64,000 nucleotides of DNA from a virus. Taxonomy: Duplodnaviria; Caudoviricetes. The stretch is from IMG/VR virus record IMGVR_UViG_3300032290_001460, positions 42,309 through 106,308 of that record; one strand, written 5' to 3'. A model generated the notes under the pieces. The model searched no databases. It saw only the letters and a list, made by a program, of their open reading frames with translations, and was not told the origin of the DNA. How positions within the stretch are numbered: position 1 is the first letter of the stretch; each line of letters opens with the position of its first letter. Shown here piece by piece: positions 298 to 49,339 of the stretch. The translations under genes and the position numbers were made by a program.

Positions 298-3200
298 ATG
301 AGCCAAGGAACATTTGAAGACATCCATTTTAAGGCGATGAATGGCCAATTCAATATAGATGAGGCACAAGGAATCGTTGAATGTTTCGTTGCCGCCGTAG
401 GTAACAAAGACTCCGTGGGTGACATCGTCGCATCGGGGGCATTTACAGAAAGTCTCAAGCGCCGCAAACCGCGCGTTGTATGGGGACACAACTGGAACGA
501 CCCCATCGGTAAGGTTCTAGAAATTTACGAAGTACCAGCACACGACCCGCGTCTCCCAGGAAAAATGAAGCAAGCAGGAGTGGGCGGGCTCTATGCGAAG
601 GTTCAATTCAACCTTGCAACAGAAAAAGGTCGCGAAGCATTTGCTAGCGTCGCTTTCTTTGGTGGAGACCAAGAATGGTCTATCGGCTATAAGACTCTCC
701 AAGCAAACTTTGACTCCGCCATGCAAGCAAACGTTTTGCGTGAAGTTGAACTGTACGAAGTGAGTCCAGTTCTTCATGGTGCAAATCAACTGACAGCCAC
801 AATTTCCGTCAAGAGCGACGAAGGTGAAAAGTGCCACAGTCCTGCTATGGGCGCTGGAATGCCAATGATGCCAGCAGTAATGCGTGCTTTTAAACCAGGG
901 ATTCCAGAAGGTGGCCCATCGCGCATTTCGGCAAGAATTGGCTACGACGTTTCTAGTCCTCGTGAAGATATTTTTGCAGAAGGCGAAGCACGCGAACTTA
1001 ATCGCGAAGAAATTTATAGACTTGAAGAAGAACTGATGTCACGTTCTAATAATCGTCTCAAGATTATCTCCGCAACTGAAAATATGGTCACATTCCATCG
1101 GATGCTCCCCAATGGTTCATCAACGGCTTACCGTCTCCCATACCACTACGATACGGCTGTTAGACAATACATGTTTGGCAAACCAGAGAAGATGGGACAA
1201 GGTCCTAGCCAGCCTCAACCACAAACAGTCGTTCCTATGCAGATGCCCAGTATGCCAATGTCTGTCAAGCCGAATGCCGTCAGCCCATATGCCATGGTTA
1301 ACGGTGGATACGATGGCGAAAAATCCGTTGAAGAAAGACTCCATGAAGTTATTGCTGGCTTAAAGTTGCCGCTCTTCGACGATGAAGTAGCAGAAAAATC
1401 TCAACAAGATAAAATTGAGGAAGTAGTGAATCTTCTTCAATCCTATATTGAAGAGAAGAGCGAACCCATGCGTGTCATTATGAAATGTGAACCGCATCAA
1501 GCGTTCCGTGTTAAGGAACTACTCGACCCGGTAATTGAGTATCACGGACTTCAGGCAGAAGTCAGTGAAAAGGGCGTCCATCTTTCAGGGACATTCAATG
1601 ATGAAACACTCGATGCACTATATGCGTCAGAGAAAAGTATTCAACGGATGTTCATGAAAGAGGGTGGTTGGGGAAAAGATAACGGCCCTACGGGGCCGAC
1701 CTTCGAAGTTGAAGTAAAAGCCCTCGGAGGCCGAGTTGGCCAAAGAATCGGTGGAGGCCTGAGTGCTGCACCACCAGGGATGGTTTGGGTTGACGTAACC
1801 GGAGCCATAGATGGCGATAGCGATGGAATAGTTTTTGAGGGTACGCCTATGCAGCGTCCCATTATTCCTCGTGCGATGATTCCCAAGGTGCAGGCGTCTA
1901 TACTTCAACAGACTTCCCTCCCCCGCGCTATGGAAATGGAGCGAAATAGGGTTCCTAAACCATCTGTTTCGCAAGAAGATTCCAAACCACGTTTAAATCA
2001 GGTTCCTAAAAAGAATGAATCAGATTCAGTGGTGCCTTCTAAGCCTATTCCAAAAATAGACGACACTATTCCAACACCCAGTAAGGCTCCTAAAAAAACT
2101 CAGGGGCGCAAATCAAGAAAAAGCCCTCCTACTAATCCGAATATATACGACCCGTGGGTTTATAGAAATTCAGGAACCGAGCGCATTCTTGGTAACGAAT
2201 TCAGCATCATTACGCCACTAGATGAAATTATTAACTCTGTTAGTTCTAGAAGTAAAAAATTGACTCCTAAAGAAATTATTGACAATTATGCTTATTTCCT
2301 TAATTATAGAGGCCTAGACACTCAACAAGTTTTTAAAATTTTTGAAAACCATGGTTATGTTAATACTGAAAAAGTCAACCAAACCATATCTGATGAGTTG
2401 AAATTTGCGATAGATGACATTATTGCGGCAGGCGGAAGAATTGTTTTTGCACAAAATAATCTTCTAATTAATTTGGGTGGCAATAAATTAATAATTGATT
2501 TATTAGATAAAGATAGTTATAGTAATGTTAGACAGCAGTTAAGTATGCCCTTGAAGCAATTGTATGTAAAAGAAAGAAAGACAGTAACAAATATTTCGGA
2601 CTTGTCTCCTAGGTATAATTATCTTAAGCCAGAATTGAAAAAATTAAAAGAAAAGTATGGCGATTATTTTGTTATACGCGCCCTGGATGCCGGCCATTAT
2701 TCTGCTGTTCTTTTTGACCCCATCTCTGGTGACCCCCTAAAAACTTATCAATTTAGTGGTAGTCCACGAAGTACTTCTAACCTTTTAAAAAACCTTTCTT
2801 CAGAATTTACAAATGCAGCCGTAGTTAGAAGATTTGAATCAGCAAAAATATGGAAGCCAGCGCGCGAAGTCATTGATAAAGTACCGTTGAGACCAGCAAA
2901 TGAAGGGGAAACCCCAAAATTCGGTCCGCTGAGTGGTACTTCTAAGTTGGTTCAGATTTTTTCTGAACTAGGTTTTTCGCCAGACAGTAAAGAATATCCT
3001 AATGCTCTCGTTGAATTAGAAATACATGATATTGGTGACGGAAAATTTGGTGTATATGGTGTAATCGTAGATGAAGATGGCATAGAACACCTCGTGAGCC
3101 AGGAGCAGGATGGTCTTGCAGATTCATTAGATTTTCTTCGTGCACTAGGTTCAGAATATTCTCAGTCGCAATTATCAGAAATGAGAAGTGCTCATCTAAG

Positions 3201-6200
3201 ACGAATGGGGGTCGTTGGTCAATTGGGCGATACTTCTGGGTTGAGTCAAGAAGTTGAAGAAATGAGGGCTGCTCGTGATGAACGAACTTACAATCAGTGG
3301 TTCGTTGATGATGGTAGTCGTTCGCAAAGAACACCTACCCTAATTTATAATACTGCCGCAAAATCTATAAGAGATATTTTTGATGATGAAAAAACATGGG
3401 ACCCATTCTTTGAAGACCTAAAAGATGTTTTGGGTCATTCTCAAAAACAATCGCAACGCCTACTCGACCTCTACGATGACCCGAACGCTACAGAAGAGGC
3501 TATAACTAATCTTGAGGAATCAATTAGGGAATTAGATGAGCAAATTGCCGCCGTTATTGATTACGCAAAATTTTTAAATGGAGAAAATCGTCGCGCTCGT
3601 CTCAAAAGACTAAAGAATCCTCTTATTAACAAAATGATTGACGAACGTACTGGGGGCGAGTATTCGGATTTTACTGATGCTGAAATTGAAAGACTTAGAA
3701 ACAATCTGACTTTTTCCGAAAATGATATAAGCGATATCTTTGGCGTTGAGGGAAGCGATAAGGCTAGAAATTTCGTTGAATCAATGCAGGATGTTTTAGA
3801 TGATGCGGAATGGTATGACGGCATACTGAGCAGTCCTATAGAGGACGAGAATAACCCTGATTATTTGGAAAATCCATCTCAAGAACTTTACGATGATGCT
3901 ATTAGAAGTTTGAGCATGGAAATTGATTTCATAAAAGATGCTAGAAAGCGTAATCATCAACAAAGACTGGCTATTTCGGATGGTAGCAATTTATCCGATG
4001 GCACCAGTCGCTCGCAGCGTTCCTTCATTAATGGACGTGGAGTGGGCGAAACTAGGCAGATTTTCCCCAATGAAGACAAACAGGGAACTAGTAAAAAAAT
4101 TAAGTACGCTCGTTATGATGGGCGCAAAGAAGAACTGCTGGTTGAATATTCCTCTGGTGAAACCATCACCTATGGTGGAGTAACCGACAGGATGGTTTCT
4201 GCAGTTGAGAAATCACTAGATGATATTGATGGCGGGATTGACGGGATAAAAGCAGAAGCACGCTATTCTATTAAACCAGATGGACAAATAGAAGGCAGGG
4301 CGGTTAGTGTAGCAACGCTAGTGCAGAGAGATATTGAACGTCTCGAACAATACGATGTTATTACTGCAAAAGATAAGTTATGGATGCAATTAGCAGCAAA
4401 TGCCATATTGTCAAATTTTGAAGAACCGCCCGAATATGAACTATTATCCTTGTCTGACCAATTGGCTAATGTGGCAAATAAACTTGCTCGCGAATATGAA
4501 GAAAATTCTGCAGCCCTAAACCTTTTAGAAATTAAAAGTTCTATTGACGACAGAGTAGGCAATGGGCTTGGCGGAACTCGCGGTACACGCATGTATCGTC
4601 CACTGAAGGATGAAACAACATTAGATTTAACCAATGACGAAATTGGTGAATTAAGAGACGAAATTCAATCAATTCTAAACAAACATGGAGACAGAATTAC
4701 TTTTGCTCCTTTTGCAGAATTTGACAAAGCGTTAAAGGACGCTCAAGATTCAAACAAAAATAATGTAACAATTAAAAATAATTTACATTCAGCATTAACC
4801 GTTGCTTACGATGAACTTTACTGGATGGCTTCACACAGTCAAGCAGAGAAAAGATGGCTCAACCCCATTGGGGAAACACTACTCAATATTGCTGCAGCAT
4901 CCGGAAGATTCACCTCCCCACGCCTCAGTGCCAATAGGGGAGACTTCAAGGGCGTCCCATTCAATAATGGCGCACCATCAAGAATGACCCCCGAAGCACG
5001 AACTACCCTCATAGATTGGGCAAACGGAGACGGATTAGGGTTCTATGTTCTAAAAGACATACGTGATTCTTATCGACTCAGGAATGGAAATCTCACCTCG
5101 CGACAGTGGAACACTCTTGCGAACATGTACAGGCGCTTTGGTCCTGGTGGCAGTGACAGAAAAGACTCAAGTAGTAGAAGTAAAAAAGATACAGAAATCT
5201 ACTATGCCATTGTCCCTTCGGACGTCCCGGACCAAATTGACGATGAGGAAGAAGAAAAACCAAAACCCAAGAAGCCAGTAGGAAAACCTGCTTCAGAGTT
5301 ACTGCCAGGCGACTTTGATTCAATGACTGCAAAAGAAAAAATTGATGTCATGTTTCAAATTGGACGTGCAACAAAAGATAATCCCGATGGCATCGCCCCA
5401 GAAGATTGGGACAGACTAATTTATCCCCTAGACAAGGAACTTGATGTAGAAGAAGCAGTACAGAACCAAGCAGAATTCATGGCTGCACAAGAAGCCGCTG
5501 CAATGAGAGGCGAAGTACTAACAGAAGAACAGTTCTACGAAAACAAATCACGTCAAGCGGAATTACACGACAGAAGAACAATACAGCGTGCATTAAGTGA
5601 ATACGACGCTGGACGACCCGAGTTATTGCAAAAACTTGGCCTACGTAGAGAAAACTTTATTATTAAAGCAGATAGAGAATACAAGGCCCCCACTAAGCCA
5701 AAGCCGTTAGGTAAATGGGCTACAGATTTCTCCATGAAGATACGTTCTCAAATAGAAAAAGCAATTGCCAATGGGCTTGCCGGAGAAGAACATCTTGACC
5801 CATGGCTATCCATGGAAGAACTTATTAATGACAACGATGGTCTCCTTGATGAAGAAACTATCCAAAACATTATCCCTGTCCTAGAAGAATATGTCAGTGC
5901 TTATGATGGGGCAGAATTTGGACATCGTTCAGAAGGTAATAGTTATAAACAAGCCAACGACATGATTGAGGAGTTGGAAAATACTCTTTCAATTCTTCTT
6001 GACCCAACAATAATCGAAGACGATTCCGATGATAGCGGAGATGACAAGAAAGACAGCGACGCTGCCTCAGAAGTTCCAGATACAACTCAGGGAGTTTCTC
6101 TATCCATAGAGGGCGATAGTGGTTCAAAAAGCCGTCGCTCATCATCTATGGCAAGTACTACGGGCAGACAAGACGCTGTTGATTCCGGAAGTAACCAAAT

Positions 6201-9200
6201 AAATTCCGAAGATAGTAGCAGGAGTATCCGAGAAGTAATCAAATTAGAAGATTTACTTGAAATAGATAAGCGCGAACAATCCGAAGATATGGGAGAACCA
6301 TTCGTTGAGTTATCAAAGGCCCTCGAAAATTGGTTAAATAATCATATTTCAGATATGGGCGGATGGGACAAAAGTCACGAAACTCGACTACGTAGGCAGG
6401 TAGAAGATTTAATTTTGAATTTACGTGGCTTGCGAGACAAGTGGCAGTCCATGGGGACTGCTAAACGAAGCGGAATATTGAGACGCATGAAGATGGTTGA
6501 TGGCTACGAACCGCACCCTCTAACTAAAATGTCACTTGAAGATATCATTAGTAAATCAGAATTACGTATTCACGATGACGGAACTCTGTCTTTCAAATTG
6601 CCTCCCAACCCAATATTGCGGCAACTCATACCAGGCAACAGAAATTATCAAGATGTAGAGTTGCCCACTGCTGAAACTGTTAGTGAAATTTTTGATAATC
6701 TCACAAATGATTGGCGCAGATTAGATGAATTATTCAATTCAATATATGAAGTTTTTGATGAAGATGAAGACGGGCGACGTGGAGCGCGCCTAAGGAAATA
6801 CCCTGTCGGCGGGGAAAAACTGCCGCACCACTCCTTGTATCTTGGCAAGTACGCTGAACCCCCGACAGAAGCACCATCTCCGGAAGGGGCGCTCCAATAC
6901 CACTACAACGACATTTCTGCTCGTATTCTTCAGTATTACATTATCCCTGAATTAGCAAAAATTAAACGCAATGAAAATCCAAAAATTGGAGAAATCTCCA
7001 ACGATAACGACCATTTTATTCATGGATATTTACAGTTATTTACAGACCCGCATGCCTGGCAGGAGATGAGTGCTGTGTTGTCTGAAAACTTCCGTGTATC
7101 GCCCGGCACCATATTGCATGACTTATTGGGGCACTACGCCCTTGGTAATACTTTTGATAGACACGGAGAATATGGAAATATTCTTTCAACAATTCAACTT
7201 GCTCGCGATAAGAAGTTCTGGCAGAAGTTGCGCGAGATACCAGAACTTTCTGACCTATCCGAAGAGGACAGGGACCTCTACATGCGCGGCTTGCTCGTTG
7301 ATGTGGCCGCAAGATGGTTTAATCGTGTCGGTACAGACTCCCCGGATGACGAGAGGAGATTGAAGAAGAAAATAGCGTTCTACGATGGACCTATTGATGA
7401 ACTTCTTGACAAAATCGACCCGCCTAACGAACAATCGTCAAGTTCTAGTCGTTCTACACGAAGAATCCCATTAATCGATGTCGATGATAAACAACTTTCT
7501 GAGTTAGGTAAAGAATCTATTGATGGTATTGCAATAAGAGAAGAATTTATTAGACCATCTTCTCGTGACGAATTAGAACAATTTGTTTCACGAAGAAAAC
7601 CGATAGGTTCGGACCTGCCTGTTGATTTACGCACTGGCGAACCTCGCCGCATGTCTCATGAGACAGACAGAGAGTGGAATGCTAGAAGAAATAATTTTTA
7701 TAGAAACAACCCATGGTTTGACCGGCCCCCTATTGATGCTTCTGAAGATTCCCCTAAAATTGATAGAAATAACGAATTTGGTGATGGAGAATTAATTAAA
7801 CCCTCATATAAATTTAATTTTAAATGGAACCAGTATCAAGATTATACTGATGAGGAATTAATAGATAAACTTAAATCAGACAAAAAACCTTCCAATACTT
7901 TGGTGCATGAATTGTCTTTACGTGGATATGAAGTTAGAAAAAAAAGAGAATATGATTTAGGTGATTTTAGTGGTAGGGAAGGATATGACTACACATACTT
8001 CTTTGCTAAGCCAATGGATGAAATAACCCAAGAGCATCTTGATAGAAGAAAATCTAAATACAATCCAGTTGATGAAACACAAAAAATAGATGAGCCGTCA
8101 ACCAGCATAATTCCTACATTGGAAGAAGACGTTGTTGATGAACAGGATTTTGTTGAGCCAGAAGAATTCCCATTAAAGCCGAAACAGCCCAGGGTTCCTC
8201 GTCCTCGACCCGGTACCAACACCGTGAATATTGGTGGCAATAATTCGGGAATCATAAATCTCGGCAACAATGTGACAATTGATACTGGCGACATAAATGT
8301 TTCTAATCAGGGCAGTAAGATTACTATTATTAATGGGAACAAGGTTACTGTTGATGCCAATACGGATGTATTGAGTATGCCATTGAAAAAAGTTGATGAA
8401 GAACTTGCTAGCATACAGAAAGATTTAGCGGAACTTAAAGAAAGAAGAGTAAAGGGCAGTATTTCTGATGCTGATTATGCTCAGCGACGCGTAGATTTGG
8501 CTAATAGGAAAGTTGCTCTCAAATTAAAGAAACATTCCGTCCCTGATGGTGATGCAACCAAGGGCACACCCAATGTTTCCTATATTGGCAACAGTTCAAG
8601 GTCAACCAGAAATATTGATTATTATCGTAGGGAATTTAATCTTTCTCCAGAAGATTTGGAATTCATCAAATATACCAATGCCCCAGATTTATTTTTGCGT
8701 GAAGAATTTGGGATAGACGATACAGCCATAGCAGACATTCGTTCTTATGTGCCGCCGTTGGATGTCATCAAGGAAATAGATTCTTTAACCGATGATGATG
8801 TTAGATTCCTTGAATCTTACGATGGTATTGTTTCACAAATTACTGAAGAATTTAATTCTTTTGTAACTCGGACGATGGCCGAACGTCTTCAGGCTATTCA
8901 ATACATAGGAAATTCTAATCTCCCTGAATTGGAAAAACAAGAAAACATAAAAGAAATTGATGATGCATTTAATGAATTATTAAAAGTTAACAGTGAAATA
9001 CATTTCGATAGGCTGAATGATGCCGTACTATATACGGCACCTTTAAATTATCGCGGTTTTGGTTGGAGGATGACCCCAGAAAGAATTTCTTCACTTGGCT
9101 TACCTGAAGGCTATGAAAACAAATTAAAGTTCAATCAGGCTACTCGCATTTGGGAAATGATGAATGGACTGGGCTTTGACTGGGACGAAATCGAAGATTT

Positions 9201-13563: not shown

Positions 13564-13571
13564 TATAAAAG

Positions 13572-13600
13572 GTGACTTTATCTTACTATTTTAAAGTCAC
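13572..13600 (+). terminator. Inverted repeat just after the giant protease gene; possible terminator or RNA-processing hairpin
   Basis: gtgacttta (13572-13580) pairs with taaagtcac (13592-13600). There is no clear U-tract. Confidence 0.35.
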
Positions 13601-13821: not shown

Positions 13822-13849
13822 TACAAAGCATTACAAGGAGTCTCGAACT

Positions 13850-15646: not shown

Positions 15647-15666
15647 TTCATAGTTCTATTTAGGGA

Positions 15667-30581: not shown

Positions 30582-30584
30582 CTC

Positions 30585-38807: not shown

Positions 38808-39062
38808 ATGAGATACATATATTTGACATCAGATAAGTTAATGGATACACCAGAGTCCGTGGTAACTATTGATGGTGATGAAGTGAAAGTTTATTCTGCA
38901 TCTTTGGATTTTAAGAAGATTCTTGAGGATGTCATTCAGGGCAGTTCTGGTCAAAAACTTGAAGATAAATTCAGTCGCATGTCATACTATTCTACTGAAT
39001 TCGGTGATATGAATTCTGAGATGGAAGCGGTTATCAAAAAATTAGAAAGAACTGAAAAGTAA
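38808..39062 (+). CDS. Small hypothetical protein (84 aa); candidate inhibitor or partner of the upstream effector
   Basis: The ATG abuts the TAG of the polyvalent gene. Confidence 0.65.
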   Translation: MRYIYLTSDKLMDTPESVVTIDGDEVKVYSASLDFKKILEDVIQGSSGQKLEDKFSRMSYYSTEFGDMNSEMEAVIKKLERTEK

Positions 39063-39098
39063 CAATAATTTTACTTATTGCCAAGGAGGAGGTGTGTT

Positions 39099-40688
39099 AT
39101 GAAATACGAATATAGTTCTACTAAAAATAAACTATGGTTAAAGACTTTGCCAAGAAAAGTTAGATTACTAATGCCTACAATAGGTAAGAAATCTCTTGGT
39201 GGTTCTATTGGAAGGGCTGGAGAACCTTTTGACCCCAATGCGTTTGATGGTGATATGGATGCCTTGGTCCAAGAAGGAACCCCATGGGAGCGCCCAGCAA
39301 CACCATCTGTTCCTAGGGGTGCTCGCAATATCGTGAAGCCTTCTATTATGCCGATTGAACTAGAAGGAGTGCGTTCTGTTCAGACCCCTAGTAGTTCACG
39401 TTCAGCGCGAGGCCCCTTGAACTTACCCGACCCATTGCCGCCCCCATTAGAGAATGATGCCGTCGTTGATGAGTCTGGATTTGATTTCGTTGATTCCCTT
39501 CATGCAATTGTTGAAAGGAGCCCTAAGAAACTTGGGTTAAGAAGTCAAGAGTTACAGACGTTGAAGAAGATAAAAGATAGAGACTCAGATACAGAACTAT
39601 GGGAAGTTTCTGATTTTCTTGACAATGAGACTATTCGTTCTGAATTGAAAAAACATATCTCCGAACGCATTGGGAGTAAGTTTGCTGAGAGAGCACGCGA
39701 AGATGACGACTTTTTACAAAGTTTGCTCTTGAGTTCAATTGCCCCTACTCATGGCTTATGGTCGGATATTACTGAAGCCCTTAAAGGCGATGACATTGAG
39801 GAAAAGAGACAGAAGTTACAAAAACTTATGTCTGGCACTATGGATAAAGTTACTCCAAGTCAGAAAAGTTTTATTAAAGAGTCTATTGAGTGGCTATCTG
39901 ATAGAAGTAAGAAGAAATCTGAATCATTTGATAAAAAAATTGATGTTTTGGCAATTAATAAGGCTAGTGAATATATTAACGAGTGGGCTAATAGTTCTAA
40001 TAATTCTCCTCGCTCAATGGCTTTACAGCGCATGGCCATTCAGGAATTCGGCTTGGAAGATGGAAGTTACTATCCAGAAGATTTGTTACCTCTTTCTGGG
40101 CAGAGTCTTAACGCTCAATCTATGAAACAAAGAACAGACGAAGAAGTGGACATGAATGGGATGCTTCAACGCGAATTCCTGCGCATACAGTATGAAGAAA
40201 CTCAGAGAATGCTCAAAGAACTCAATGTTCAGTCATTGTCTGTTGCAAGAGGTATGACAGTTGGCGAGAATAGTCAACTCATAAAAGATATGAATTCCAC
40301 CAATCCTGATTGGAAAGAAAATAATGTTGGGGTAGAGAAACCTCTTACATTACGTCCGCTTTCTTCGTGGGCTACAAAATCATGGGAGGCTATGAAATTT
40401 GCGTCCCCCCTGGAAGAGGGTAACGAAAATGTTCTTGCAGTAGCAAACGTACCCGCAGAGCAAGTCTTATCCCTCTCAACAACAGGGATTGGATGTTTGC
40501 CTGAGTGGGAAGCAGTTTTAGTGGCGGCGCCGGTGAATGCCAGAATATTCAATATGCCAGAGAATATTGATGATGTTGAGAATGCGGAAGAATGGTTAAT
40601 GGACCCAGCGTCATACGAAGAAAATTCTGACTTTGACTTAGATTCACTCTACGACGACGATGACGATGACTTTGACTACGAAGACTAA
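39099..40688 (+). CDS. DxDxDG-tagged protein with a C-terminal ADP-ribosyltransferase-like domain
   Basis: AGGAGGAGG precedes the ATG at 39099 (ORF track starts at 39078). Tag: KSLGG...FDPNAFDGDMDALVQEGTPWERP. R-S-E type motifs: VARGM, LSSWAT, PEWEAVLV. Confidence 0.72.
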   Translation: MKYEYSSTKNKLWLKTLPRKVRLLMPTIGKKSLGGSIGRAGEPFDPNAFDGDMDALVQEGTPWERPATPSVPRGARNIVKPSIMPIELEGVRSVQTPSSSRSARGPLNLPDPLPPPLENDAVVDESGFDFVDSLHAIVERSPKKLGLRSQELQTLKKIKDRDSDTELWEVSDFLDNETIRSELKKHISERIGSKFAERAREDDDFLQSLLLSSIAPTHGLWSDITEALKGDDIEEKRQKLQKLMSGTMDKVTPSQKSFIKESIEWLSDRSKKKSESFDKKIDVLAINKASEYINEWANSSNNSPRSMALQRMAIQEFGLEDGSYYPEDLLPLSGQSLNAQSMKQRTDEEVDMNGMLQREFLRIQYEETQRMLKELNVQSLSVARGMTVGENSQLIKDMNSTNPDWKENNVGVEKPLTLRPLSSWATKSWEAMKFASPLEEGNENVLAVANVPAEQVLSLSTTGIGCLPEWEAVLVAAPVNARIFNMPENIDDVENAEEWLMDPASYEENSDFDLDSLYDDDDDDFDYED

Positions 40689-40697
40689 GGTAAACAA

Positions 40698-40919
40698 ATG
40701 AGTAAAAACAATAAACCGATATTCGTCAATGAGAATACTTTAACCAACAGGCAATTTGACTTAGATGCAAGCAATCTTGAAGAGTTGGCAAGACTTATTG
40801 GGGTAGCGAAAGATAGCCCTGAATTTGACGAGTATTTAACTGAGGCAAATAAACTATCTTGGGTAGAAACCGCCCCTAAAGATATTCGGGATGCCATTAG
40901 GGCACGCGAAGTAAAGTAA
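40698..40919 (+). CDS. Small hypothetical protein (73 aa); candidate inhibitor or partner
   Basis: AAGGT precedes the ATG. The ORF fills the gap between two tagged effector genes. Confidence 0.65.
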   Translation: MSKNNKPIFVNENTLTNRQFDLDASNLEELARLIGVAKDSPEFDEYLTEANKLSWVETAPKDIRDAIRAREVK

Positions 40920-40928
40920 AATACTACA

Positions 40929-43865
40929 ATGCGCCCCCGTATACGTTCCACGAGATTCTATCTTCCTTCAACGAAAGCCCTAGGCGGCTCTATTGGTCGT
41001 CTCAATGAACCTTTTGACCCAGATGCCCTCGATGGGGATGAGGATGGCATAGTTCAGGATGGTACTCCTTGGGAGCGCCCGGGAATACCTGGAACGCCTA
41101 GTATCTCTGGTGGCAAGATGAGGGATGGGTCAAAAAGAGAGATTACTGCGTCCTCTGATATTGACAACACTGAGGAAATCGCCACGCCCAATGATTCCTC
41201 GGAACAAGTCCCAGTCTCGGATATTACCTTAGAAGATATCGTTGATGAACTTTTAGAAATTCTAACTCCCGAATTCTTAGAAGAAATAAATAAATTTGGG
41301 GAAGAATTTATGTTTGGCTCTGGTCGCAATGTTAGAAAAACAGTTCAAAACGTTGATGAGTGGCGCGAGATACAGGATGCCGAGTTAGTTACCGTTGACG
41401 TGTTCGAACCAGGGGAAGGACCGGGGGAAACTAAATACCCCATTCCAAAAGGGAAATACACCATAGGCTCACCTTCGATGATGAAGGCAGAAGAGCGAAT
41501 TAGGGATGTTGGGATGAGGGTCGTCCAAGGATTGATGAATTTTCTTTCTGGTTCTAGGGAGAATAGAAAAAAAATGCTCGAAGAGGCAAGGGGCCGTCTT
41601 GAAGAGTACAGAGAGACTCAAAGAGAAGTTACTGAAAAACTTGGGCTTGTTACCTGGGCTAGAAAATGGGAAATGCGTTATGCTGATGAAGATTCAAAAG
41701 AAAGGGGTAATTTTGCGAGACAACTTTATGACACGGCTAAAGAATTATTTGGTAATCATCCAGACTTGAGCCCGGATGCTGATTTTAATGAAATTGCAAT
41801 GACTAGGTCTGAAGATGTGAACTATATTGTCAATAAATATCTTTTAAATTTACTTCAGTCAGATGTTTTCAAGGCCATCGATGAAGAAGATGGGGAAGAA
41901 AGTAATATTTTTGTTAATCAGATAAATAGGCTGAAAAAAAATATTAAAGAATATGAAAAATCTTCTCGTGAAATACCGGGAGTAATTAAAGAGGACTTAG
42001 TGAGATTGCAACAATCACTTGATGAATCGATGGCTGTTAGGAAGAAGTTGATTAACCAATTAAATGATGTTGCCACTAAGCCCATTGACCCAATATACGA
42101 TGATGAAATCATTATAGAAGATTTGACTACTGAAAGTGGAAAAGAATTTTCTAGAATAATCAATGAAGAACTATTGCCTATTTCAAGAAAAATACTTCTA
42201 CAGTATCGAGATATAGAAGTAAAACTAGATGAAGAAAAAATGGATGATGTCAAACGTCAAACCGGCATGAGCCATATTGACGCTAGGGATTTAGGGGAAA
42301 TTATTAATTCCGGTGGCGCCGTAATTCCATCTAAAGTAAATTCGCGAGCAGTTACTGCAAATGAAATTATGGATGAAATTAGCCTTTTGCAAAACGCCAA
42401 AATTTCTGAAGTGATAAAAGATATTGAAGAAAGAATAGTAGAAACTGAACGTCCAGCACTGCTTCGTAAAATATTTCCTACAGGATATTGGAAGTATGAT
42501 TCAAAAACTAAAAAACCTGTCAGAAATGCGCGAAGAGAAGATGGCTCTCTAATTTTCGCCACTCCATTGACCGTGCTGTTTGCGGGCAAATCTGGCAATG
42601 GCGTGATAAAAGAAACTTTTCAAAAAGCATTAAAATCTTTTGAAATATCCAGCAAGGATATTGATGCTTATTTAAATTCATATCATGTATCAGATGAGAG
42701 TCGCGATAATGCTATGTCTCTTTTGGGGCGACGTACTGAAATAATTGACGAGATGCAAACAATTTTACGTGATGTTTTTGAAGATTTGGAAAAAAATTAT
42801 CCTGACTTAGCAGAGCAATATATGATGGGTGGCTTAAATGCCCTGAAAGAGATTGCTCGCAAGGTGCCAGAAAGTAGCACTAGTCAAAAATGGAATGACT
42901 ATATGCAAAAAATGGTAGAACTAAATAAGGAATTACAAAAAATTTTATCTGATTTAATAGATGTGCTTTCTCCTGAAGAAAAAGATAAATTAAAAAAATT
43001 GCGGGAAGATTTAGAGCAGGCAAAAGTTAAAAAAGGTGATTATATTCTAGAAAAAATTTCATCATTATCAGCAGAAATTGATGAATTATTGGCTGATAAG
43101 CCACTGACATTTTCTCAAGAATTTAAAAAATCTTTAATTAACATATTAGAAGAAATGGGCATATCTCCTTCAAAAGATTCTTTATTGGACGTAAGTAAGC
43201 CAACAATAGGTGATGGCTCCATGAAGACGACTGAAGCAAATGTTGAAAAATTTAAACAACATATTAGTGAAATTGTTCCCGAACCAATTATTCAGTTATT
43301 AAATCTTTTTCTAAAAAATAATCCTCATACGGTTCGTGCATTAACTGTCGATGAAGTCGGTGATAGGGCTGGCCATTGGAAGAAGGGTTCTCGGCAGATA
43401 GCAACAAATTTTGAGCAAAAAGTAAACTTGCATGAATTTATGCACATGATGTCAACTTATTTTCCGTTTGCATCAATGGCTGAGCAAGCGTTTCTCTATA
43501 ACCGCGGCTTAAGGGGCGAGAAAGGTTCTTCCGTAGAAGAGAGAATGGTTGATTTAGACTTTGAAGATGCCGTCTACTGGCAATACTCGGCGACTCTTGG
43601 TATACGACAGCCAGCACCCGGAGTTCGCGATTATAGGAGTAGTGACTATTATATAGAAGATGAATTTGATAAGAGATATACTGGGCGAATCTATCCTAGA
43701 GATGAACCAGAAGATTTTGCTACAGAGGTTCTCAGCACTGGAATCGAAGTTTTAGCAGACACCTATACCGGTACGGACTTTCCTGACTACGAACATCTTG
43801 CTTTAGTGATAGGTGTCCTAATAACTGCTGGTATCATGTCTAGGGATGGAATAGCAAAAATATGA
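40929..43865 (+). CDS. 978-aa DxDxDG-tagged protein with a helical/coiled-coil body and a C-terminal zincin-like metallopeptidase domain
   Basis: Tag: KALGG...FDPDALDGDEDGIVQDGTPWERP. HEFMH at 43431, followed by YTGRIY...TEVLSTGIE...DYEHLALVIG. Confidence 0.78.
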   Translation: MRPRIRSTRFYLPSTKALGGSIGRLNEPFDPDALDGDEDGIVQDGTPWERPGIPGTPSISGGKMRDGSKREITASSDIDNTEEIATPNDSSEQVPVSDITLEDIVDELLEILTPEFLEEINKFGEEFMFGSGRNVRKTVQNVDEWREIQDAELVTVDVFEPGEGPGETKYPIPKGKYTIGSPSMMKAEERIRDVGMRVVQGLMNFLSGSRENRKKMLEEARGRLEEYRETQREVTEKLGLVTWARKWEMRYADEDSKERGNFARQLYDTAKELFGNHPDLSPDADFNEIAMTRSEDVNYIVNKYLLNLLQSDVFKAIDEEDGEESNIFVNQINRLKKNIKEYEKSSREIPGVIKEDLVRLQQSLDESMAVRKKLINQLNDVATKPIDPIYDDEIIIEDLTTESGKEFSRIINEELLPISRKILLQYRDIEVKLDEEKMDDVKRQTGMSHIDARDLGEIINSGGAVIPSKVNSRAVTANEIMDEISLLQNAKISEVIKDIEERIVETERPALLRKIFPTGYWKYDSKTKKPVRNARREDGSLIFATPLTVLFAGKSGNGVIKETFQKALKSFEISSKDIDAYLNSYHVSDESRDNAMSLLGRRTEIIDEMQTILRDVFEDLEKNYPDLAEQYMMGGLNALKEIARKVPESSTSQKWNDYMQKMVELNKELQKILSDLIDVLSPEEKDKLKKLREDLEQAKVKKGDYILEKISSLSAEIDELLADKPLTFSQEFKKSLINILEEMGISPSKDSLLDVSKPTIGDGSMKTTEANVEKFKQHISEIVPEPIIQLLNLFLKNNPHTVRALTVDEVGDRAGHWKKGSRQIATNFEQKVNLHEFMHMMSTYFPFASMAEQAFLYNRGLRGEKGSSVEERMVDLDFEDAVYWQYSATLGIRQPAPGVRDYRSSDYYIEDEFDKRYTGRIYPRDEPEDFATEVLSTGIEVLADTYTGTDFPDYEHLALVIGVLITAGIMSRDGIAKI

Positions 43866-46800
43866 ACATGAACTGGACTTTCACAATAGGGGATAAAGAC
43901 TATTCCGCCACTTATGACAATGCTTCTTTTGTTACGGATTCTCCACTCGTTGAATACTACGTGAACAAATTAATCGATGACAGAACTGTCGTCGAAATAG
44001 GCGATGTAGGCCCAATGGCTACCGCATCCTTTGAAACCGATGCTCACGCATGGGGAACAATAACGCACGCTATCAGGAAACTAGCCAACATAGGCTCAGG
44101 CAAATATCCATTCTCACCATTAAACGGCGAAGACGAAATAGTTAAACCTGATGATAAAGAACCAAAAACCAAGTCACTAGGACCATCCCTTGGTGGCGTC
44201 AACGAACCATTTGACCCTAATGCTTTCGATGGCGACAACGACGGCATGGTGCAAGACAGCACTCAATGGGAAAGACCTGCACTACCAGGTCAAATTCCAA
44301 CAGTAGTGTCGCAAGAAGTTGCTCGGCCTGTGAGTTTAACCTTCACTGGGCCAGACCCACGAATTTTATATCCAGACATGGTAGGCAAAACTGGCTCTGC
44401 TAGATATGGGAATTCCCCATCTATACGCATAGAGCATCCTCTATCTCCAGGCAATGACATTGCTTTTGTTTCCGTTAGAGACTTAATGAAACTCCCTGGG
44501 AATATGCCAAATGATGATGGGGAGATTATTTTTGAAGAACGCGTTGAAAAATTGAGACAAGAACTTCTATCGAATGGATTCCGAAGCCCGATTGATATTG
44601 CGTACGACCCGACAACGGGCAGAGCATACGTATCAGAAGGCAACCATAGGCTTCATGCGGCATTTGCTGCAGGATATTCCTATATTCCTACAACTATTTT
44701 TCCTATGCGAATTAATGAGAATCGTCCGGCTTTAATCATTACAAAAGATTTAGATAAATGGCCGTGGAGAGAAACCGCAGATGGCGTTTACTACAATAAA
44801 AATCATATGAGGGAAAGATACTTGGAGCGAGAAGATGCTTGGCCCCCATTCGCCCCATCGGAACAAGATAAGAAACATATACCAAACATGAGAATTCACC
44901 CGTTGTGGGTTCTTCCTCAAGGAAGTATTGCAGGAGAAATTAGCGATAACGGTGTTTGGGGTCCATTGCAGCCAAATGCAATAGAGCCATTGACGGACAC
45001 TTCGCGTTCCAAGCGCGAATTCAGTTTCTTCCCTTCCCTAGGAAAAAAGAATAGGGTAAATAAGAAGGCCTTAAGCCAAGTCGGTCCTTATCCCGTTGTT
45101 GGTGATGTTGACTATCCTTCTACGACGCATAGGTTTAAAGTACATGGTTATGAAACATTATGGGCAGTACCCGAAGTTGGTGGACTCAACCCTGGAGAAA
45201 TGCTACTTATCAGAGATTATTCAGATGAAATAAAAAATTTTCATCACATTGAAGGAATATCTGATGGATTAGTCCGTATGACAAAAAGTGGACAAGTATT
45301 ATTCACAATTTTGTCACCCGAAGAATCTGTTGAATTACGTGAAAGTATCAGCACGGGGAAGCCTCTATCCGCATCCATAGAACAGCGCATATCAGACAGG
45401 TTTGTAAAAATACCTGGTGAAGATGGAACCATTGATGATGCTATTGATTTTATGTACTCGATACTTCCATCAAATATAACTAAACCTAAACAGATTTCTT
45501 TGTTTGAACAAGAGGTTATAGACGAATTCACTTATCCGGATGGGCAAAAAACAATAGTTACAGTGGATGCACATGCTAGTCACACTCAAAAATCAATGAC
45601 TTTTTGGAACGGCCATACACCTACTGAATCACTTGAAACAATGCGAACGTTCTTTCATGAACATGGCCATATGATTGACCCAATACCACCTATGTATTAC
45701 ATGGTTCATCCAACTGCTACGCAGATGCTGGGCGACTCTCCCGAAAAGCCAATGTATTTCAGCGATTCAATAGCATGGGGGGCTGCAGTGGAGCGTGATA
45801 GCCAGGTCGCTCATAGTATGATTTTAAAAAATGCATTAATTCATCCTGAAACAAGAACACGCATGAGTTTTATTTCTGGCAAGAAGGCTGTTAGTTTATA
45901 TGGCACAACTGATGTTCGGGAGGATTTTTCTGAAGCATTGGCAATGTATTTGATAGATAAATTCTATGGCAGTTTTGTTATAAATGAAGAATTGGGCACA
46001 AACGTCAGATTTGCTCAACTGTTTCCAAATAGGGCACAATTTTTTGATGACGTTATAGGAACATTGTATAGTTTTGATGAGCCTCTTGAAAATTTAGTTA
46101 AAGCGATAACTACGGGTGATTTCAATGCTATTAATAGTTCACGCTCTAGTCGTATAGTTCCTTCTAAATCAACTTTAATACCTGATGGAATATTCGATGT
46201 CGAAGAGCCACGATTTGGAAGCGTTCAAAAATTAGTAAGATATACCATGGACAACCCAGAGATAAATGTTTTTCTTTTCAAAAATGCCGCGTTAAGTCCA
46301 AGTAGTTCACAAAAAACTGAGTTTGGTATTGCCGTAAAACATTTAGTCCCAAACAATTTACTTAGTCGCGATGGACACTTTATATCGGTTGATATTTCCG
46401 AAAGTGAATTTGAAGAGTTATCAACGAGCATGGTTCTTGGTAATGGAATCCCACAGGAAATATCTAATAGAATTAATTCAAAATTAGATATTATTCGTAA
46501 TCAGATGCAAAAATTGCATGCAGTTTTACCGGATGGCGCTGTTTCAAAAATGAGTTTCATACATGCAAGTGAAAAAAGTCTATTCTTGCCATGGGTGGAT
46601 GTAGACGGCCAGGCTGTTACGCAAATTTCTAACGGCCTTGGCCAAGAACCACGCAATTTTATTGCAATTTATAGTTTAAATAGACATACCGAAAGTCATT
46701 TAAGCGATGTATTAGCGCACGAACTCGGGCATATCCTTGATAGAGATGGTGGGCGAAACTATAAAAAATCATTTGTTAATGAATCTAATAGATGGCTAAA

Positions 46801-49339
46801 AGCAAGAGCAAGTGATAAAAAAACTTTTGAAACATTTAGACAATTACTTGATGACGAAATACTTGTTCCAATTTCTAGAGATTCTGCCGTCCCAAATATA
46901 CGTAAAGGGAAAAAAGGAATAACAGAATATGGCGGCACAAGTGATAGTGAAGATTTTGCTGAAACAATAAAATTGTATATATCAGACTTGCGGAATAGTG
47001 GTTTATTCAGAAATAAAGATACTAATGAAATGGTCCGTTTTTCGGATATGTTCCCTAATCTTCATGGAATGCTTAAAGAATTTTTATCAACATACGAAAC
47101 TAATACAACCGATAAGGAAGTTATAGAAACAGTAAGCGACAGTTCTTTCTCACGGCGTTCTAGTGGGTTTTCTAACGGGACGTGGAAAATCGAAGGAAAT
47201 GTCGTGCAGGAAATTAGTAAATGGCCCGATAAAAATACACCTCAGGGTAAAAAAATCCTTGATAGTGCCGAATTCAAAACACAGGTGGCATTGCTGGATG
47301 CAATGAATATTTGGCGAGGTAGTTTTAGTGACAGTAGAATGTTGGCTCGTATTCTTGGTGGTCTCAAGCCTCCAGAGGGAACTCAATACGTCGACGACAG
47401 GTTTATGAATATAGCACGAGTGCTTGATGGTGCTCTTGAAAATGCTCCCACTATTTCTGGTCAAGTTACTATCGCCGGAAAATCCATACCACTCCCCCTG
47501 TATCGTTCGATGCGATTAACGCCAGATGTTTTCGATAGCATAAATTTTGGTGTTGGCAGCGAATTGAATTTTAGGGCTGCTTCAGCAGCATTTAGGGCCG
47601 ATGTTGCGGCACAGTACAACATTGATGAATTAACCAATTTAGGTATTCGTGGAGGAATGCCTAAGAAAATCATTGTTCAGTTGCCCAGTGATACCAAGGG
47701 GCTAGTTTTTGATGATAGAAAAACTATCGTTGCGGACCAATTTAATGAACGCCCAGTAGAAGCAATCATTCGTGGAAACTTTAGGGTCGCTTCAGTCAAA
47801 ACAATAACTATGCGCGACCCAATAACACGCAAGGATATTGAACAAGAAATTCATGTTATGGAACATATTGAACCGCCGACAAGTTCTCGTTCCACTAGAC
47901 GTAAATATCACACAACGAATACACGACTAGACATCGGCGACTTTATTGTTTCACCTCGTAAGTCTGGCAAGGAGAATGAAAGTTCTAGTCAGATAGATTT
48001 CAATGATTCTTCAGTGGTTTACGCATCTCCCAATTTTGCTGATGTGACTAGAGGAATCGAAGATTTTGCTAGTTCTGGCAGATATAAAGATAGTAACGGG
48101 CCTCTCTATATGTATCAAATTGAGGACACATCTCCAGCGAGCCTTAGTAGCGACACGTTCCCCCGTAATGAACTATCAATGACGTCATCTAGGGTGGAAC
48201 GAGGCAAGGTCACTGGCATTTATAAGGTTTCCGATGATGGCGATGCTTTCATGTTTTCTGGTGGCTCGCGTTCAAGACGTAAGGGCGCAGGAGTACCAGC
48301 ATCCAAGCCTAAAGATACACGCAGAGCAATAAGAGGCAAAATTGTTTCTGGTCGTCAGGGAATTGACGAAGATGGACTTACTCCAGAATTCATTCAAGCC
48401 ATGGAGTCAAAAATGGAAGAGATGGGTCTTTCTAGGGAAATGTTTCAAAAGACTCTTGATGATTTTTTAAAAACTTTAACTAGAACTAATATCGATATTG
48501 GTAAAAGATGGTACCCATTCGTTAATCGTCGAATGAGAGATATGGTCGAAGATTTAAATAATAGATATGGTACTTCTATAACTTTCGAGCAGGGCGCCGC
48601 CGTAATGGCAGCGTTATCTCCTTTGAGGGAAGTGAATGAAAATATCAAGGCGGCAAAATTAATTTTAAGAACTTTTGCTGCTGATGAAGATTTTGAGATA
48701 ACAGAAGAATTATTAAGTAAGTTAAAAATTTCAAAAAAAGAAGTTGAGATTTTCCTTGCTCGTGCTGGCGATGGAAAAATTAGACCTTCTGAATTTAACG
48801 ATGACGAAATAGAAATACTCATAGGTTTGAATCTTGGTTTTCTTAAAGCCGGAAGTGTTGATGGTCTTGCGAATATTAAAAAATCAATTTTTATTTTGAG
48901 AGATAAAAATTCAATAGATGATGTGCTTAAAGGGCCCAAAGTCCGTTCTTTTTATTCTAATATCGTAGACCCAAATGGAACTAGAGTGACGATTGATACA
49001 TGGATGTATAAAATGATGGTTCCTCCAGATGTAAAAATATTATATAAAGGGCAAGAATTAACACTTGCCGAACATTTGAACATAAAGGGACCCGACGGCA
49101 AGAAAGTAAATAACGTTCAAGCGATGTTCCAAGCAACGCCACAAAGCAAAAAATTGGGTGGACAAATTGGTTTATACCCCATATTTGCTGAATTGATAAG
49201 AAATGCAGCAATAAAATATAATATTCCTCCCTCTGCTCTTCAGGCAGCACTTTGGGAAAGGTTCAGGATGCAACTTTCTAATTATCAGCCAACTGATTGG
49301 GATGAAGTTGCTGGACTTTTTGATTTGGATGTAGAATAA
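43862..49339 (+). CDS. 1825-aa polyvalent protein: ParB/Srx-like domain, two lethal-factor-like zincins, ADP-ribosyltransferase-like domain, Arr-like domain, C-terminal glycosylase-like helical domain
   Basis: Tag at 44171-44280. VSEGNHRLHAA at ~44630. HEHGH at 45656 and HELGH at 46718. LYRSM...PVEAIIRG at ~47500-47775. YHTTNTRLDIGD...VVYASP at ~47905. AALSP/GPKVRSFYSNI/VTIDTW/LQAALW at 48600-49256. Confidence 0.85.
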   Translation: MNMNWTFTIGDKDYSATYDNASFVTDSPLVEYYVNKLIDDRTVVEIGDVGPMATASFETDAHAWGTITHAIRKLANIGSGKYPFSPLNGEDEIVKPDDKEPKTKSLGPSLGGVNEPFDPNAFDGDNDGMVQDSTQWERPALPGQIPTVVSQEVARPVSLTFTGPDPRILYPDMVGKTGSARYGNSPSIRIEHPLSPGNDIAFVSVRDLMKLPGNMPNDDGEIIFEERVEKLRQELLSNGFRSPIDIAYDPTTGRAYVSEGNHRLHAAFAAGYSYIPTTIFPMRINENRPALIITKDLDKWPWRETADGVYYNKNHMRERYLEREDAWPPFAPSEQDKKHIPNMRIHPLWVLPQGSIAGEISDNGVWGPLQPNAIEPLTDTSRSKREFSFFPSLGKKNRVNKKALSQVGPYPVVGDVDYPSTTHRFKVHGYETLWAVPEVGGLNPGEMLLIRDYSDEIKNFHHIEGISDGLVRMTKSGQVLFTILSPEESVELRESISTGKPLSASIEQRISDRFVKIPGEDGTIDDAIDFMYSILPSNITKPKQISLFEQEVIDEFTYPDGQKTIVTVDAHASHTQKSMTFWNGHTPTESLETMRTFFHEHGHMIDPIPPMYYMVHPTATQMLGDSPEKPMYFSDSIAWGAAVERDSQVAHSMILKNALIHPETRTRMSFISGKKAVSLYGTTDVREDFSEALAMYLIDKFYGSFVINEELGTNVRFAQLFPNRAQFFDDVIGTLYSFDEPLENLVKAITTGDFNAINSSRSSRIVPSKSTLIPDGIFDVEEPRFGSVQKLVRYTMDNPEINVFLFKNAALSPSSSQKTEFGIAVKHLVPNNLLSRDGHFISVDISESEFEELSTSMVLGNGIPQEISNRINSKLDIIRNQMQKLHAVLPDGAVSKMSFIHASEKSLFLPWVDVDGQAVTQISNGLGQEPRNFIAIYSLNRHTESHLSDVLAHELGHILDRDGGRNYKKSFVNESNRWLKARASDKKTFETFRQLLDDEILVPISRDSAVPNIRKGKKGITEYGGTSDSEDFAETIKLYISDLRNSGLFRNKDTNEMVRFSDMFPNLHGMLKEFLSTYETNTTDKEVIETVSDSSFSRRSSGFSNGTWKIEGNVVQEISKWPDKNTPQGKKILDSAEFKTQVALLDAMNIWRGSFSDSRMLARILGGLKPPEGTQYVDDRFMNIARVLDGALENAPTISGQVTIAGKSIPLPLYRSMRLTPDVFDSINFGVGSELNFRAASAAFRADVAAQYNIDELTNLGIRGGMPKKIIVQLPSDTKGLVFDDRKTIVADQFNERPVEAIIRGNFRVASVKTITMRDPITRKDIEQEIHVMEHIEPPTSSRSTRRKYHTTNTRLDIGDFIVSPRKSGKENESSSQIDFNDSSVVYASPNFADVTRGIEDFASSGRYKDSNGPLYMYQIEDTSPASLSSDTFPRNELSMTSSRVERGKVTGIYKVSDDGDAFMFSGGSRSRRKGAGVPASKPKDTRRAIRGKIVSGRQGIDEDGLTPEFIQAMESKMEEMGLSREMFQKTLDDFLKTLTRTNIDIGKRWYPFVNRRMRDMVEDLNNRYGTSITFEQGAAVMAALSPLREVNENIKAAKLILRTFAADEDFEITEELLSKLKISKKEVEIFLARAGDGKIRPSEFNDDEIEILIGLNLGFLKAGSVDGLANIKKSIFILRDKNSIDDVLKGPKVRSFYSNIVDPNGTRVTIDTWMYKMMVPPDVKILYKGQELTLAEHLNIKGPDGKKVNNVQAMFQATPQSKKLGGQIGLYPIFAELIRNAAIKYNIPPSALQAALWERFRMQLSNYQPTDWDEVAGLFDLDVE

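Follow-up and report, generated by a model that had tools for sequence, protein, structure and literature searches.

The locus considered here raises the question of why one short peptide, S-R-S-x-[RK], recurs in the giant proteins encoded in the head gene block of an uncultured tailed phage. The window, i.e. the whole stretch of 64,000 nucleotides analysed, comprises bases 42309-106308 of a 106-kb viral contig from IMG/VR (IMGVR_UViG_3300032290_001460; completeness estimate 71%); all data are metagenomic sequences. A preceding sequence-only reading had taken the peptides for linkers at domain boundaries and, by analogy with K|S, for protease cleavage sites of the R|S type. The interpretation favoured here, with moderate confidence, is that they are processing sites cut by the S78 prohead protease, by which polyvalent polyproteins loaded into the capsid would be split into about 30 domain-sized proteins.

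The S-R-S-x-[RK] peptide in the window

The motif coordinates of the sequence-only reading could all be reproduced: the regular expression [SGT]SRS.[RK] gave 23 matches in six proteins (nine in the open reading frame (ORF) 298-13563, four in ORF 15667-25755, two overlapping ones at 29853 and 29862 in ORF 28962-30581, three in ORF 30585-38807, one in ORF 39078-40688, and four in ORF 43862-49339; see Table 1). The peptide that had been placed at 32352 reads R-S-R-S-Q-R and retains the core, but not [SGT] at the first position; the core expression S-R-S-x-[RK] matched 24 sites in the window. Shuffling of whole proteins led to an expectation of 0.2 matches versus the 23 observed, and shuffling within 20-residue blocks, by which the local Ser/Arg richness is kept, resulted in a mean of 0.36 and a maximum of 4; for the core expression, 0.95 matches were expected by shuffle versus 24 observed. 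Of the 27 S-R-S tripeptides in the window ORFs, 25 are followed by x-[RK], and the information is restricted to approximately seven positions, [SD]-[SGT]-S-R-S-x-[RK], the flanks being uninformative. Conservation resides at the protein level, as had been proposed: the Ser codons at the sites are a mixture of AGY and TCN and the Arg codons a mixture of CGN and AGR. In consequence, the signal is a peptide and not a DNA repeat, and a DNA-level repeat or gene conversion as the origin of the motif could be ruled out. The three variants noticed previously were present as well (SGSKSRR at 6118, SSSLSKK at 10177, DSSFSRR at 47138), and a position-weight scan revealed a fourth one (ESSTSQK at 42870 in ORF 40929).

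The six proteins to which the sites are confined all have their genes in the interval from the portal/prohead-protease genes to the major capsid gene. In agreement with the earlier statement that capsid and scaffold-like genes lack the motif, zero sites were found in the portal gene, ORF 13850, ORF 26938, the capsid gene, ORF 53301 and the minus-strand genes, and likewise zero across all ORFs of the 42 kb that precede the window; approximately 55 kb of the contig outside the block are site-free. The sole high-scoring near-match of the contig outside the head block, DSSRAKR, is located at residue 642 of a 1528-aa minus-strand ORF upstream of the window (contig G000:C1:17296-21882), which lies in the tail-gene region and possibly encodes the tape measure protein.

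The overlay on predicted domains placed no site inside any Pfam domain; the site-delimited pieces are 108-1577 aa long, mostly 230-600 aa. The proposed bracketing of the ArdC module of ORF 30585 was confirmed, with sites at residues 1528 and 1877, ArdcN at 1548-1663 and MPTase-PolyVal at 1706-1816. This ArdC-N/MPTase-PolyVal unit (residues 1528-1877) shares 51% identity with residues 173-506 of the first giant protein of G001, one of five relatives introduced below, in which it is flanked by two G-S-K-S sites: it thus resides in a different giant and carries the local motif there. Generally, the ends of cross-lineage alignment blocks were approximately threefold enriched within 10-30 residues of sites. 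Pfam matches in the cargo include Zeta-toxin-like and PI3/PI4-kinase-like P-loop or kinase domains and, in ORF 298, multiple helix-turn-helix (HTH) domains besides S78. The ParB, ART, Arr-like and glycosylase-like labels given before to the pieces of ORF 43862 were not borne out, since Pfam searches with each piece returned only weak zincin matches and DUF7178.

Different motifs at orthologous positions in relatives

Searches of IMG/VR yielded 305 relatives for the N-terminal 647 aa of ORF 298 and 379 for the capsid protein; the protease ORF of most retrieved loci continues into a protein of 1,000-4,000 aa. Complete protease-to-capsid blocks (24-44 kb) were fetched for five relatives, G001-G005, whose shared synteny is portal, protease-giant, acidic protein, second giant, small ORF, a conserved protein of approximately 670 aa, one to three tag-bearing giants, and capsid. 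The protease/cargo split of G001 (L008, region nt 11380-11600 of the re-oriented block) could represent separate genes, a programmed frameshift or an assembly error.

S-R-S-x-[RK] was abundant only in the two closest relatives. By unbiased k-mer enrichment, each other lineage revealed its own recurrent peptide: G-S-K-S-[TS]-T in G001 (21 sites observed, 0.45 expected; alternation regular expression), G-[MLFV]-R-S(-R) in G002 (51 versus 1.35), G-L-A-S-[TS] in G003 (15 versus 0.31), G-[FLM]-[SA]-S-[SR](-T) in G004 (11 versus 0.18) and (R)-G-M-[ARS]-S(-R) in G005 (17 versus 0.36). Further dialects occurred at other loci (L-R-S-S-G, R-L-A-S-G-R, G-A-R-S-S, S-T-R-S-S, R-L-S-S-G-R). None of the fetched lineages carries its motif in the portal or capsid protein, in the acidic protein or in the 670-aa protein.

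The positions of the sites are shared between lineages that differ in motif: 74 of the 112 sites inside cross-lineage BLAST alignments were situated at most 8 residues from the different motif of the partner, versus 5.5% of random positions. For example, AESSRSQRGVS of the window is aligned with PIGSKSTTRGVS of G001, PDSSRSMRPIG with GMRSRGEMQPIG of G002, and SSSRSSRS with ERGMASRAE of G005. A single Ser is the sole residue common to all aligned dialects; R, K, A or S stands directly before it, S, M, L, F, A or T two positions before it, and usually G or S one further upstream. In a relative with a 71% identical giant, 36 of 40 motif positions were identical versus 217 of 312 in the flanks, and by this comparison the motif is under purifying selection. 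That 15-50 dispersed sites, with codons unrelated to one another, have been rewritten in concert requires a shared trans-acting reader of the peptide.

GenBank phages with the protease fusion, the tag or the motif were not found; those that matched, mostly Gordonia phages, share the protease domain (approximately 40% identity) and the capsid gene (approximately 48%) only. The capsid protein is 47-48% identical to that of Gordonia phages (GMA6, Chidieberevirus group) and, over the mature part, 56% identical to that of Brevibacterium phage Cantare; the G+C content of the contig is only approximately 42%.

Candidate loading tag, candidate proteases and competing explanations

A tag of approximately 50 residues is common to seven otherwise unrelated proteins (ORFs 298, 28962, 30585, 39078, 40929, 43862 and 53301; one copy each). 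Its consensus, K-A-L-G-G..G..F-D-P-x-A-x-D-G-D-x-D-G-x-V-Q-E-G-T-P-x-E-R-P, includes a DxDxDG-type loop. A hidden Markov model of the tag gave one significant match (plus one chance-level match) in each of 24 proteins of six lineages, and in all 24 of these tag-bearing proteins the tag is N-terminal to every site; a search of 5.8 billion proteins returned matches only within the present phage family. The tag is regarded as a candidate capsid-loading signal, comparable to the sequences by which T4 internal proteins are targeted to the capsid (PMC9026906, PMC5694885), and its location before all sites would fit a tag-led entry into the prohead followed by cutting.

The S78 domain of ORF 298 scored 41.1 bits (curated PF04586 cut-off 21; match confirmed on the contig) and ends in a conserved S-V-K-S-D. 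Among 28 lineage representatives, VWGHNW and QEWSIGY are invariant; by family membership, these would contain the catalytic His and Ser. A head-module context of the protease was confirmed by the portal gene (PF04860, E 2e-47) directly upstream, the end of which lies just inside the window, and by the HK97-fold capsid gene (PF05065, phrog_10), though the latter is separated from the protease by 51 kb of mostly giant genes; in ordinary HK97-like phages, protease and capsid genes are adjacent. The presumptive maturation site of the capsid protein, Q-F-K|S-I-G-D-E-F, is located at nt 51983-52009, its Ser101 being invariant in 15 relatives. The boundary reads F-K|S-I-G-D-E-F in the window, G001 and G002, which are basic-P1 lineages, and shows L-G-S-S or Y-G-S upstream of S-I-G in the small-P1 lineages G003 and G004; in the clade with the cargo motif R-L-S-S-G-R, the capsid protein reads Q-L-S-S-R-E-I-K|S-I-G. 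Herpesvirus assemblins cut at Ala|Ser. The substrate of the human cytomegalovirus protease contains N-A-S-S-R (PMC13486704), and HK97 gp4 cuts gp5 at K103|S104 (PMC10275583).

According to the proposed mechanism, the polyproteins, the genes of which are seen in the sequence between portal plus protease and capsid, would each be loaded by the tag into the assembling prohead, with the protease as N-terminus of the largest one. After assembly, S78 would cut each site, most likely as S-R|S, before the invariant Ser (analogous to K103|S104 of HK97 and A|S of herpesvirus assemblin), by which the cargo would be freed from the tag. As suggested by their domain content, the pieces (ArdC-N plus zincin, a Zeta-toxin-like kinase, a pentapeptide-repeat protein, HTH proteins and several zincins) would then leave the capsid along with the DNA and exert their functions at an early stage in the host. 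The motif would represent a family-wide, fast-evolving specificity code of which each lineage has rewritten all sites while keeping their positions. Cleavage at R|S, as put forward in the sequence-only reading, is thus the best-supported interpretation with regard to the swapped motifs at orthologous positions, the shared Ser, the module boundaries and the tag-bearing head-module proteins; the cutting itself is predicted, and for the enzyme there are two candidates, the prohead protease and a zincin that is likewise conserved. A cut by S78 before the invariant Ser is favoured by this Ser together with the K|S bond of HK97, the A|S bond of assemblin, the capsid Ser and the existence of site-bearing lineages free of MPTase-PolyVal. 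We consider the chances to be even that the phages form a large, as yet uncultured family with a true polyprotein strategy, in which polyproteins of up to 4,400 aa are loaded by a tag and diced by the maturation protease at 15-50 sites per genome with a code rewritten per lineage. With such a strategy, the persistence of site positions under a changing code would imply that effector modules can be shuffled as site-bounded cassettes.

Several observations weigh against S78 as the cutting enzyme or against cleavage in general. The case for cleavage is comparative throughout. The S78 catalytic domain is 80-90% identical over the 28 lineage representatives despite their different motifs; a search for S78 residues that track the motif class revealed none that were convincing, the best columns following phylogeny, and near-identical proteases are paired with L-R-S-S-G, R-L-A-S-G-R and G-L-A-S-S-T. 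In consequence, the lineage specificity would be unaccounted for if S78 were the reader. Giant 2 (ORF 15667) contains sites and no tag; the G001 protease is encoded by an ORF of its own, devoid of the tag, which ends 24 nt before the tag-plus-cargo ORF in another frame; and the capsid protein lacks a full lineage motif. The dip in hydrophobicity at the sites is narrow (approximately ±10 residues) and barely visible in the window, and the profile is too weak for use as evidence of long disordered linkers. Finally, the zincin-like HExxHxxQ domain of giant 2 is intact, with further invariant Glu residues, in all six lineages and in every further locus inspected.

This domain, in some lineages perhaps replaced in its role by MPTase-PolyVal, might cut the sites instead, inside the capsid or after injection, as Iyer et al. 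put forward for polyvalent proteins, and then possibly at G|[M/L/F/S], on the N-terminal side of the lineage-variable residue. Besides its integrity, its divergence (24-43% identity between lineages versus 80-90% for S78) is in favour of this explanation because it could carry a lineage-specific specificity. An autoproteolytic release of domains by MPTases has moreover been predicted (Iyer et al. 2017, PMC5512222). With a zincin, P1', usually the main specificity determinant of such enzymes, would coincide with the motif position that varies most between lineages (M, L, F, S, A or T). Conversely, the invariant Ser would fall at P3', where it has no obvious role, a cargo protease active before loading would separate the cargo from its tag, and MPTase-PolyVal was not found in three site-bearing lineages (G003-G005, with 11-17 sites). 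The giant-2 domain itself matched no peptidase family: searches of Pfam gave no family and profile searches of PDB nothing meaningful, those of the ESM Atlas gave sub-threshold leads only (including an ATLF-like cluster at 0.86), and its AlphaFold2 model (mean predicted local distance difference test score 51) was unusable. Altogether, a zincin as the processing enzyme is thought unlikely, although it is the strongest competitor of S78. Less probable still is that the peptide is recognized and left uncleaved, either because its Ser is modified by an enzyme of the phage (through phosphorylation, glycosylation or ADP-ribosylation) or because it is a docking or ejection signal that recurs from module to module. 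The invariant Ser, the Ser/Thr-rich motifs and the kinase-like cargo domains (Zeta-toxin-like, PI3/PI4-kinase-like) would be compatible with modification, and the reader demanded by the comparison need not be a protease; however, motifs such as GLAST and GFSSST contain no basic residues and therefore do not comply with a single kinase-type consensus, which weakens the phosphorylation alternative of the sequence-only reading. Moreover, the sites lie at module boundaries and move with shuffled modules, the tag precedes all of them, and the proteins are fused to or encoded beside a maturation protease from a family with Ser at P1'.

Cutting by a host protease after injection, with lineage motifs reflecting different hosts, would account for the switch of motif between close phage lineages, as host switches might cause it, and is nevertheless judged very improbable: a protease of the Ser-P1' family is encoded by the phage in the same polypeptide, no host is known for the phage, nor any bacterial cytoplasmic endoprotease with such specificities for five to six residues. 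The polypeptides would then leave the virion uncut, for which giant virion proteins ejected intact, such as the N4 virion RNA polymerase, offer a precedent (PMC5512222). Practically no weight is given to a chance or compositional artefact of Ser/Arg-rich low-complexity linkers, for which only the Ser-rich character of some flanks (SSSSSRS) speaks; the block shuffles (0.36 versus 23), the 25 of 27 S-R-S tripeptides continued by x-[RK] and the test of orthologous positions are opposed to it, and a chance origin is refuted by the block shuffles and the cross-lineage position test.

Known systems, gene order and further features of the window

The closest counterpart by protease family is HK97, in which gp4 (MEROPS S78) cuts the delta domain of gp5: the portal-protease-capsid logic, a delta-like domain and a presumed basic|Ser bond are shared. 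In contrast to HK97, approximately 51 kb of cargo genes are inserted between protease and capsid gene, the protease forms the N-terminus of a 4421-aa protein, and the candidate substrates are at least 24 sites with a six-residue consensus in six non-structural proteins. Prohead processing of ejection proteins at consensus motifs is known from T4 (gp21 with internal proteins and Alt), phiKZ (gp175) and SPN3US (gp245) (PMC5694885, PMC10052503, PMC9026906). There, too, numerous proteins that reside inside the capsid and are ejected later are trimmed by a prohead protease at a short consensus, and an N-terminal targeting sequence is removed after loading; correspondingly, the short consensus of the present phage recurs in proteins of the head block and is absent elsewhere on the contig. 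Nevertheless, the T4/phiKZ/SPN3US proteases belong to S77 and recognize L/I-x-E or S/A/G-x-E, unlike the S78 protease of the window and its Glu-free motif; they usually make one or few cuts per protein, and neither the cutting of polyproteins with 9-24 sites into unrelated enzymes nor a lineage-wise rewriting of motifs has been described for them.

With regard to the cargo, the polyvalent proteins of phages and conjugative elements, for which packaging, injection and proteolytic release were predicted (Iyer, Burroughs, Anand, de Souza, Aravind 2017; PMC5512222), are most similar: ORF 30585 strings together DUF3721, Zeta_toxin, pentapeptide repeats, ArdcN and MPTase-PolyVal in a late/structural context with portal. 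However, assemblin-like peptidases are "always at the C termini" according to that study, in contrast to the N-terminal peptidase of the window, and it describes neither a linker or cleavage motif (the word "linker" is absent) nor a common loading tag. An N-terminal protease is found in herpesvirus assemblin (pUL26), which is fused to its substrate, releases itself and cuts inside the capsid at A|S, the same bond that is suggested for the GLAS, GMAS and GFAS lineages; differing from the window giants, assemblin has only two sites (R- and M-), and its substrate is a scaffold and not effector cargo. The Dar proteins of phage P1 (DarB, DdrB) and the N4 virion RNA polymerase are likewise very large anti-defence or early proteins that enter the capsid by means of N-terminal signals and are later injected, but act largely as single polypeptides with no known repeated processing motif. 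To the polyprotein logic of picornaviruses and retroviruses the architecture conforms (embedded protease, like sites between units), with the reservation that the G001 protease is a separate ORF and that processing is predicted here.

No description of the present motifs or of protease-headed phage polyproteins was found in the literature. Prohead-protease trimming of capsid-internal, ejected proteins and polyvalent proteins with predicted release were already known; the scale (9-24 sites per protein, 24-51 per genome), the N-terminal S78, the common tag and the lineage-wise rewriting at conserved positions appear to be new. If the favoured reading holds true, a few polyproteins would yield the dozens of effectors that a tailed dsDNA phage packages and releases, and prohead-protease maturation would extend from propeptide trimming to full polyprotein processing. 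The sites would provide a simple sequence rule for splitting phage ORFs of 2,000-4,400 aa that otherwise defy annotation into functional units, an aid to the discovery of anti-defence genes, and the lineages a natural series of protease/site-code variants for the study of specificity-substrate co-evolution. Tag and site would together constitute a natural, programmable system of cargo loading and release in an HK97-type capsid, which suggests the loading and release of arbitrary proteins in HK97-fold capsids (laboratory phage, encapsulin-like systems). Since exact bonds are now predicted, the processing of polyvalent proteins predicted in 2017 becomes directly testable.

On the plus strand, the gene order is portal, ORF 298-13563, ORF 13850, ORF 15667, three mid-sized ORFs, and ORFs 28962, 30585, 39078, 40929 and 43862, followed by a basic 353-aa ORF, the major capsid gene (51692-53011) and the 1435-aa ORF 53301 (see Table 1).

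Table 1. Coordinates of site-bearing and tag-bearing proteins, sites, tags and selected domains in the window (aa, amino acids).
Feature	Position	Strand	Details
Giant ORF 1 (ORF 298)	298..13563	+	4421 aa; S78 prohead protease, tag, cargo; 9 canonical sites and 2 variants; pieces 230-825 aa
Peptidase_S78 domain (HK97-type prohead serine protease)	361..819	+	ORF 298 residues 22-174; PF04586, E 2.7e-10
Tag	1708..1908	+	ORF 298 residues 471-537; N-terminal to all sites
Site SSRSKK	2242..2259	+	ORF 298
Site GSRSQR	3313..3330	+	ORF 298; aligned with GSKSHT site of G001
Site TSRSQR	4003..4020	+	ORF 298; aligned with GSKSRT site of G001
Site SSRSKK	5170..5187	+	ORF 298
Variant site SGSKSRR	6118..6138	+	ORF 298; position-weight scan
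Site SSRSIR	6214..6231	+	ORF 298
Site SSRSTR	7444..7461	+	ORF 298
Site SSRSTR	8593..8610	+	ORF 298
Site SSRSMR	9313..9330	+	ORF 298
Variant site SSSLSKK	10177..10197	+	ORF 298; position-weight scan
Site SSRSKK	11077..11094	+	ORF 298
ORF 13850	13850..15646	+	Acidic, repeat-rich scaffold-like protein, 598 aa; no sites
Giant ORF 2 (ORF 15667)	15667..25755	+	3362 aa; no tag; 4 sites, all in C-terminal half; N-terminal piece 1577 aa with zincin-like domain
HExxHxxQ zincin-like domain	17629..18276	+	ORF 15667 residues 655-870; HEIGH at residue 727; rival candidate protease
Site SSRSQR	20389..20406	+	ORF 15667; exact alignment with GSKSTT of G001, RGVS next in both
Site SSRSMR	21889..21906	+	ORF 15667; aligned with GMRSR of G002
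Site GSRSQR	22231..22248	+	ORF 15667
Site SSRSQR	22774..22791	+	ORF 15667
Tag-bearing protein (ORF 28962)	28962..30581	+	539 aa; tag, then double site SSRSSRSVK at 29853-29879, aligned with RGMASR of G005
Tag	29535-29699	+	ORF 28962
Giant ORF 3 (ORF 30585)	30585..38807	+	2740 aa; DUF3721, tag, site, Zeta-toxin-like P-loop, pentapeptide repeats, site, ArdC-N plus MPTase-PolyVal, site, site, C-terminal piece
Tag	31182-31376	+	ORF 30585
Site RSRSQR	32355..32372	+	ORF 30585; exact alignment with GSKSTT of G001
Site SSRSKR	35157..35174	+	ORF 30585; upstream edge of ArdC-N/MPTase module; aligned with GSKSST of a different G001 giant
ArdC-N (PF08401) plus MPTase-PolyVal zincin (PF18818) module	35226..36032	+	Pfam
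Site SSRSKR	36204..36221	+	ORF 30585; downstream edge of ArdC module
Site SSRSTR	37338..37355	+	ORF 30585
Tag-bearing protein (ORF 39078)	39078..40688	+	536 aa; single site SSRSAR at 39393-39410
Tag	39150-39338	+	ORF 39078
Tag-bearing protein (ORF 40929)	40929..43865	+	978 aa; no canonical site; variant ESSTSQK at 42870-42890
Tag	40947-41108	+	ORF 40929
Giant ORF 4 (ORF 43862)	43862..49339	+	1825 aa; tag, 4 canonical sites and 1 variant, two HExxH pieces, C-terminal DUF7178
Tag	44147-44308	+	ORF 43862
Site TSRSKR	44999..45016	+	ORF 43862
Site SSRSSR	46136..46153	+	ORF 43862
Variant site DSSFSRR	47138..47158	+	ORF 43862; position-weight scan
Site SSRSTR	47882..47899	+	ORF 43862
Site GSRSRR	48263..48280	+	ORF 43862; G001 GSKS site at most 5 residues away in alignment
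HK97-fold major capsid protein	51692..53011	+	PF05065, phrog_10; N-terminal delta-like domain
Tag-bearing protein (ORF 53301)	53301..57608	+	1435 aa; downstream of capsid gene; no sites
Tag	55077-55247	+	ORF 53301

The acidic protein encoded by ORF 13850 contains internal repeats (MDEDM..EEQKM) and ends in a PDGSFPI...GRAKD segment that also matches the C-terminal part of the Gordonia phage ChisanaKitsune capsid maturation protease. What is a protease-scaffold fusion in such Gordonia phages appears, from this match, to be split into two genes in the window. Orthologs of the acidic protein occur in all five other fetched lineages, all of them site-free. In the delta domain of the capsid protein, an enrichment of hydrophobic-[KR]-S (5 versus 0.7 expected in the window) was not conserved in the relatives and was not used. 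Besides DUF6321, the protein encoded by ORF 53301 has a region of Pro/Thr-rich repeats and, at its C-terminus, an HExxH domain with homologues in pieces of ORFs 43862 and 15667; its residues 159-188 resemble residues 141-169 of the capsid protein (SGLPTGNPGTFGNIQRD versus SMPSGNPGTFGSVERD).

Low-complexity Pro-rich tracts follow conserved domains at 18270-18500 of the window and at residues ~800-1020 of ORF 53301 (PPGPPG, TPPTPP), and those of ORF 15667 and ORF 53301 match each other by BLAST; many relatives possess a Pro-rich tract behind the protease domain too, including PGMPGMP repeats. On the minus strand, two adjacent paralogous small ORFs (59758-60779) are 39% identical, one of them with a match to HNH_3, and are followed by a GT2 glycosyltransferase/TPR protein at 61257-63023.

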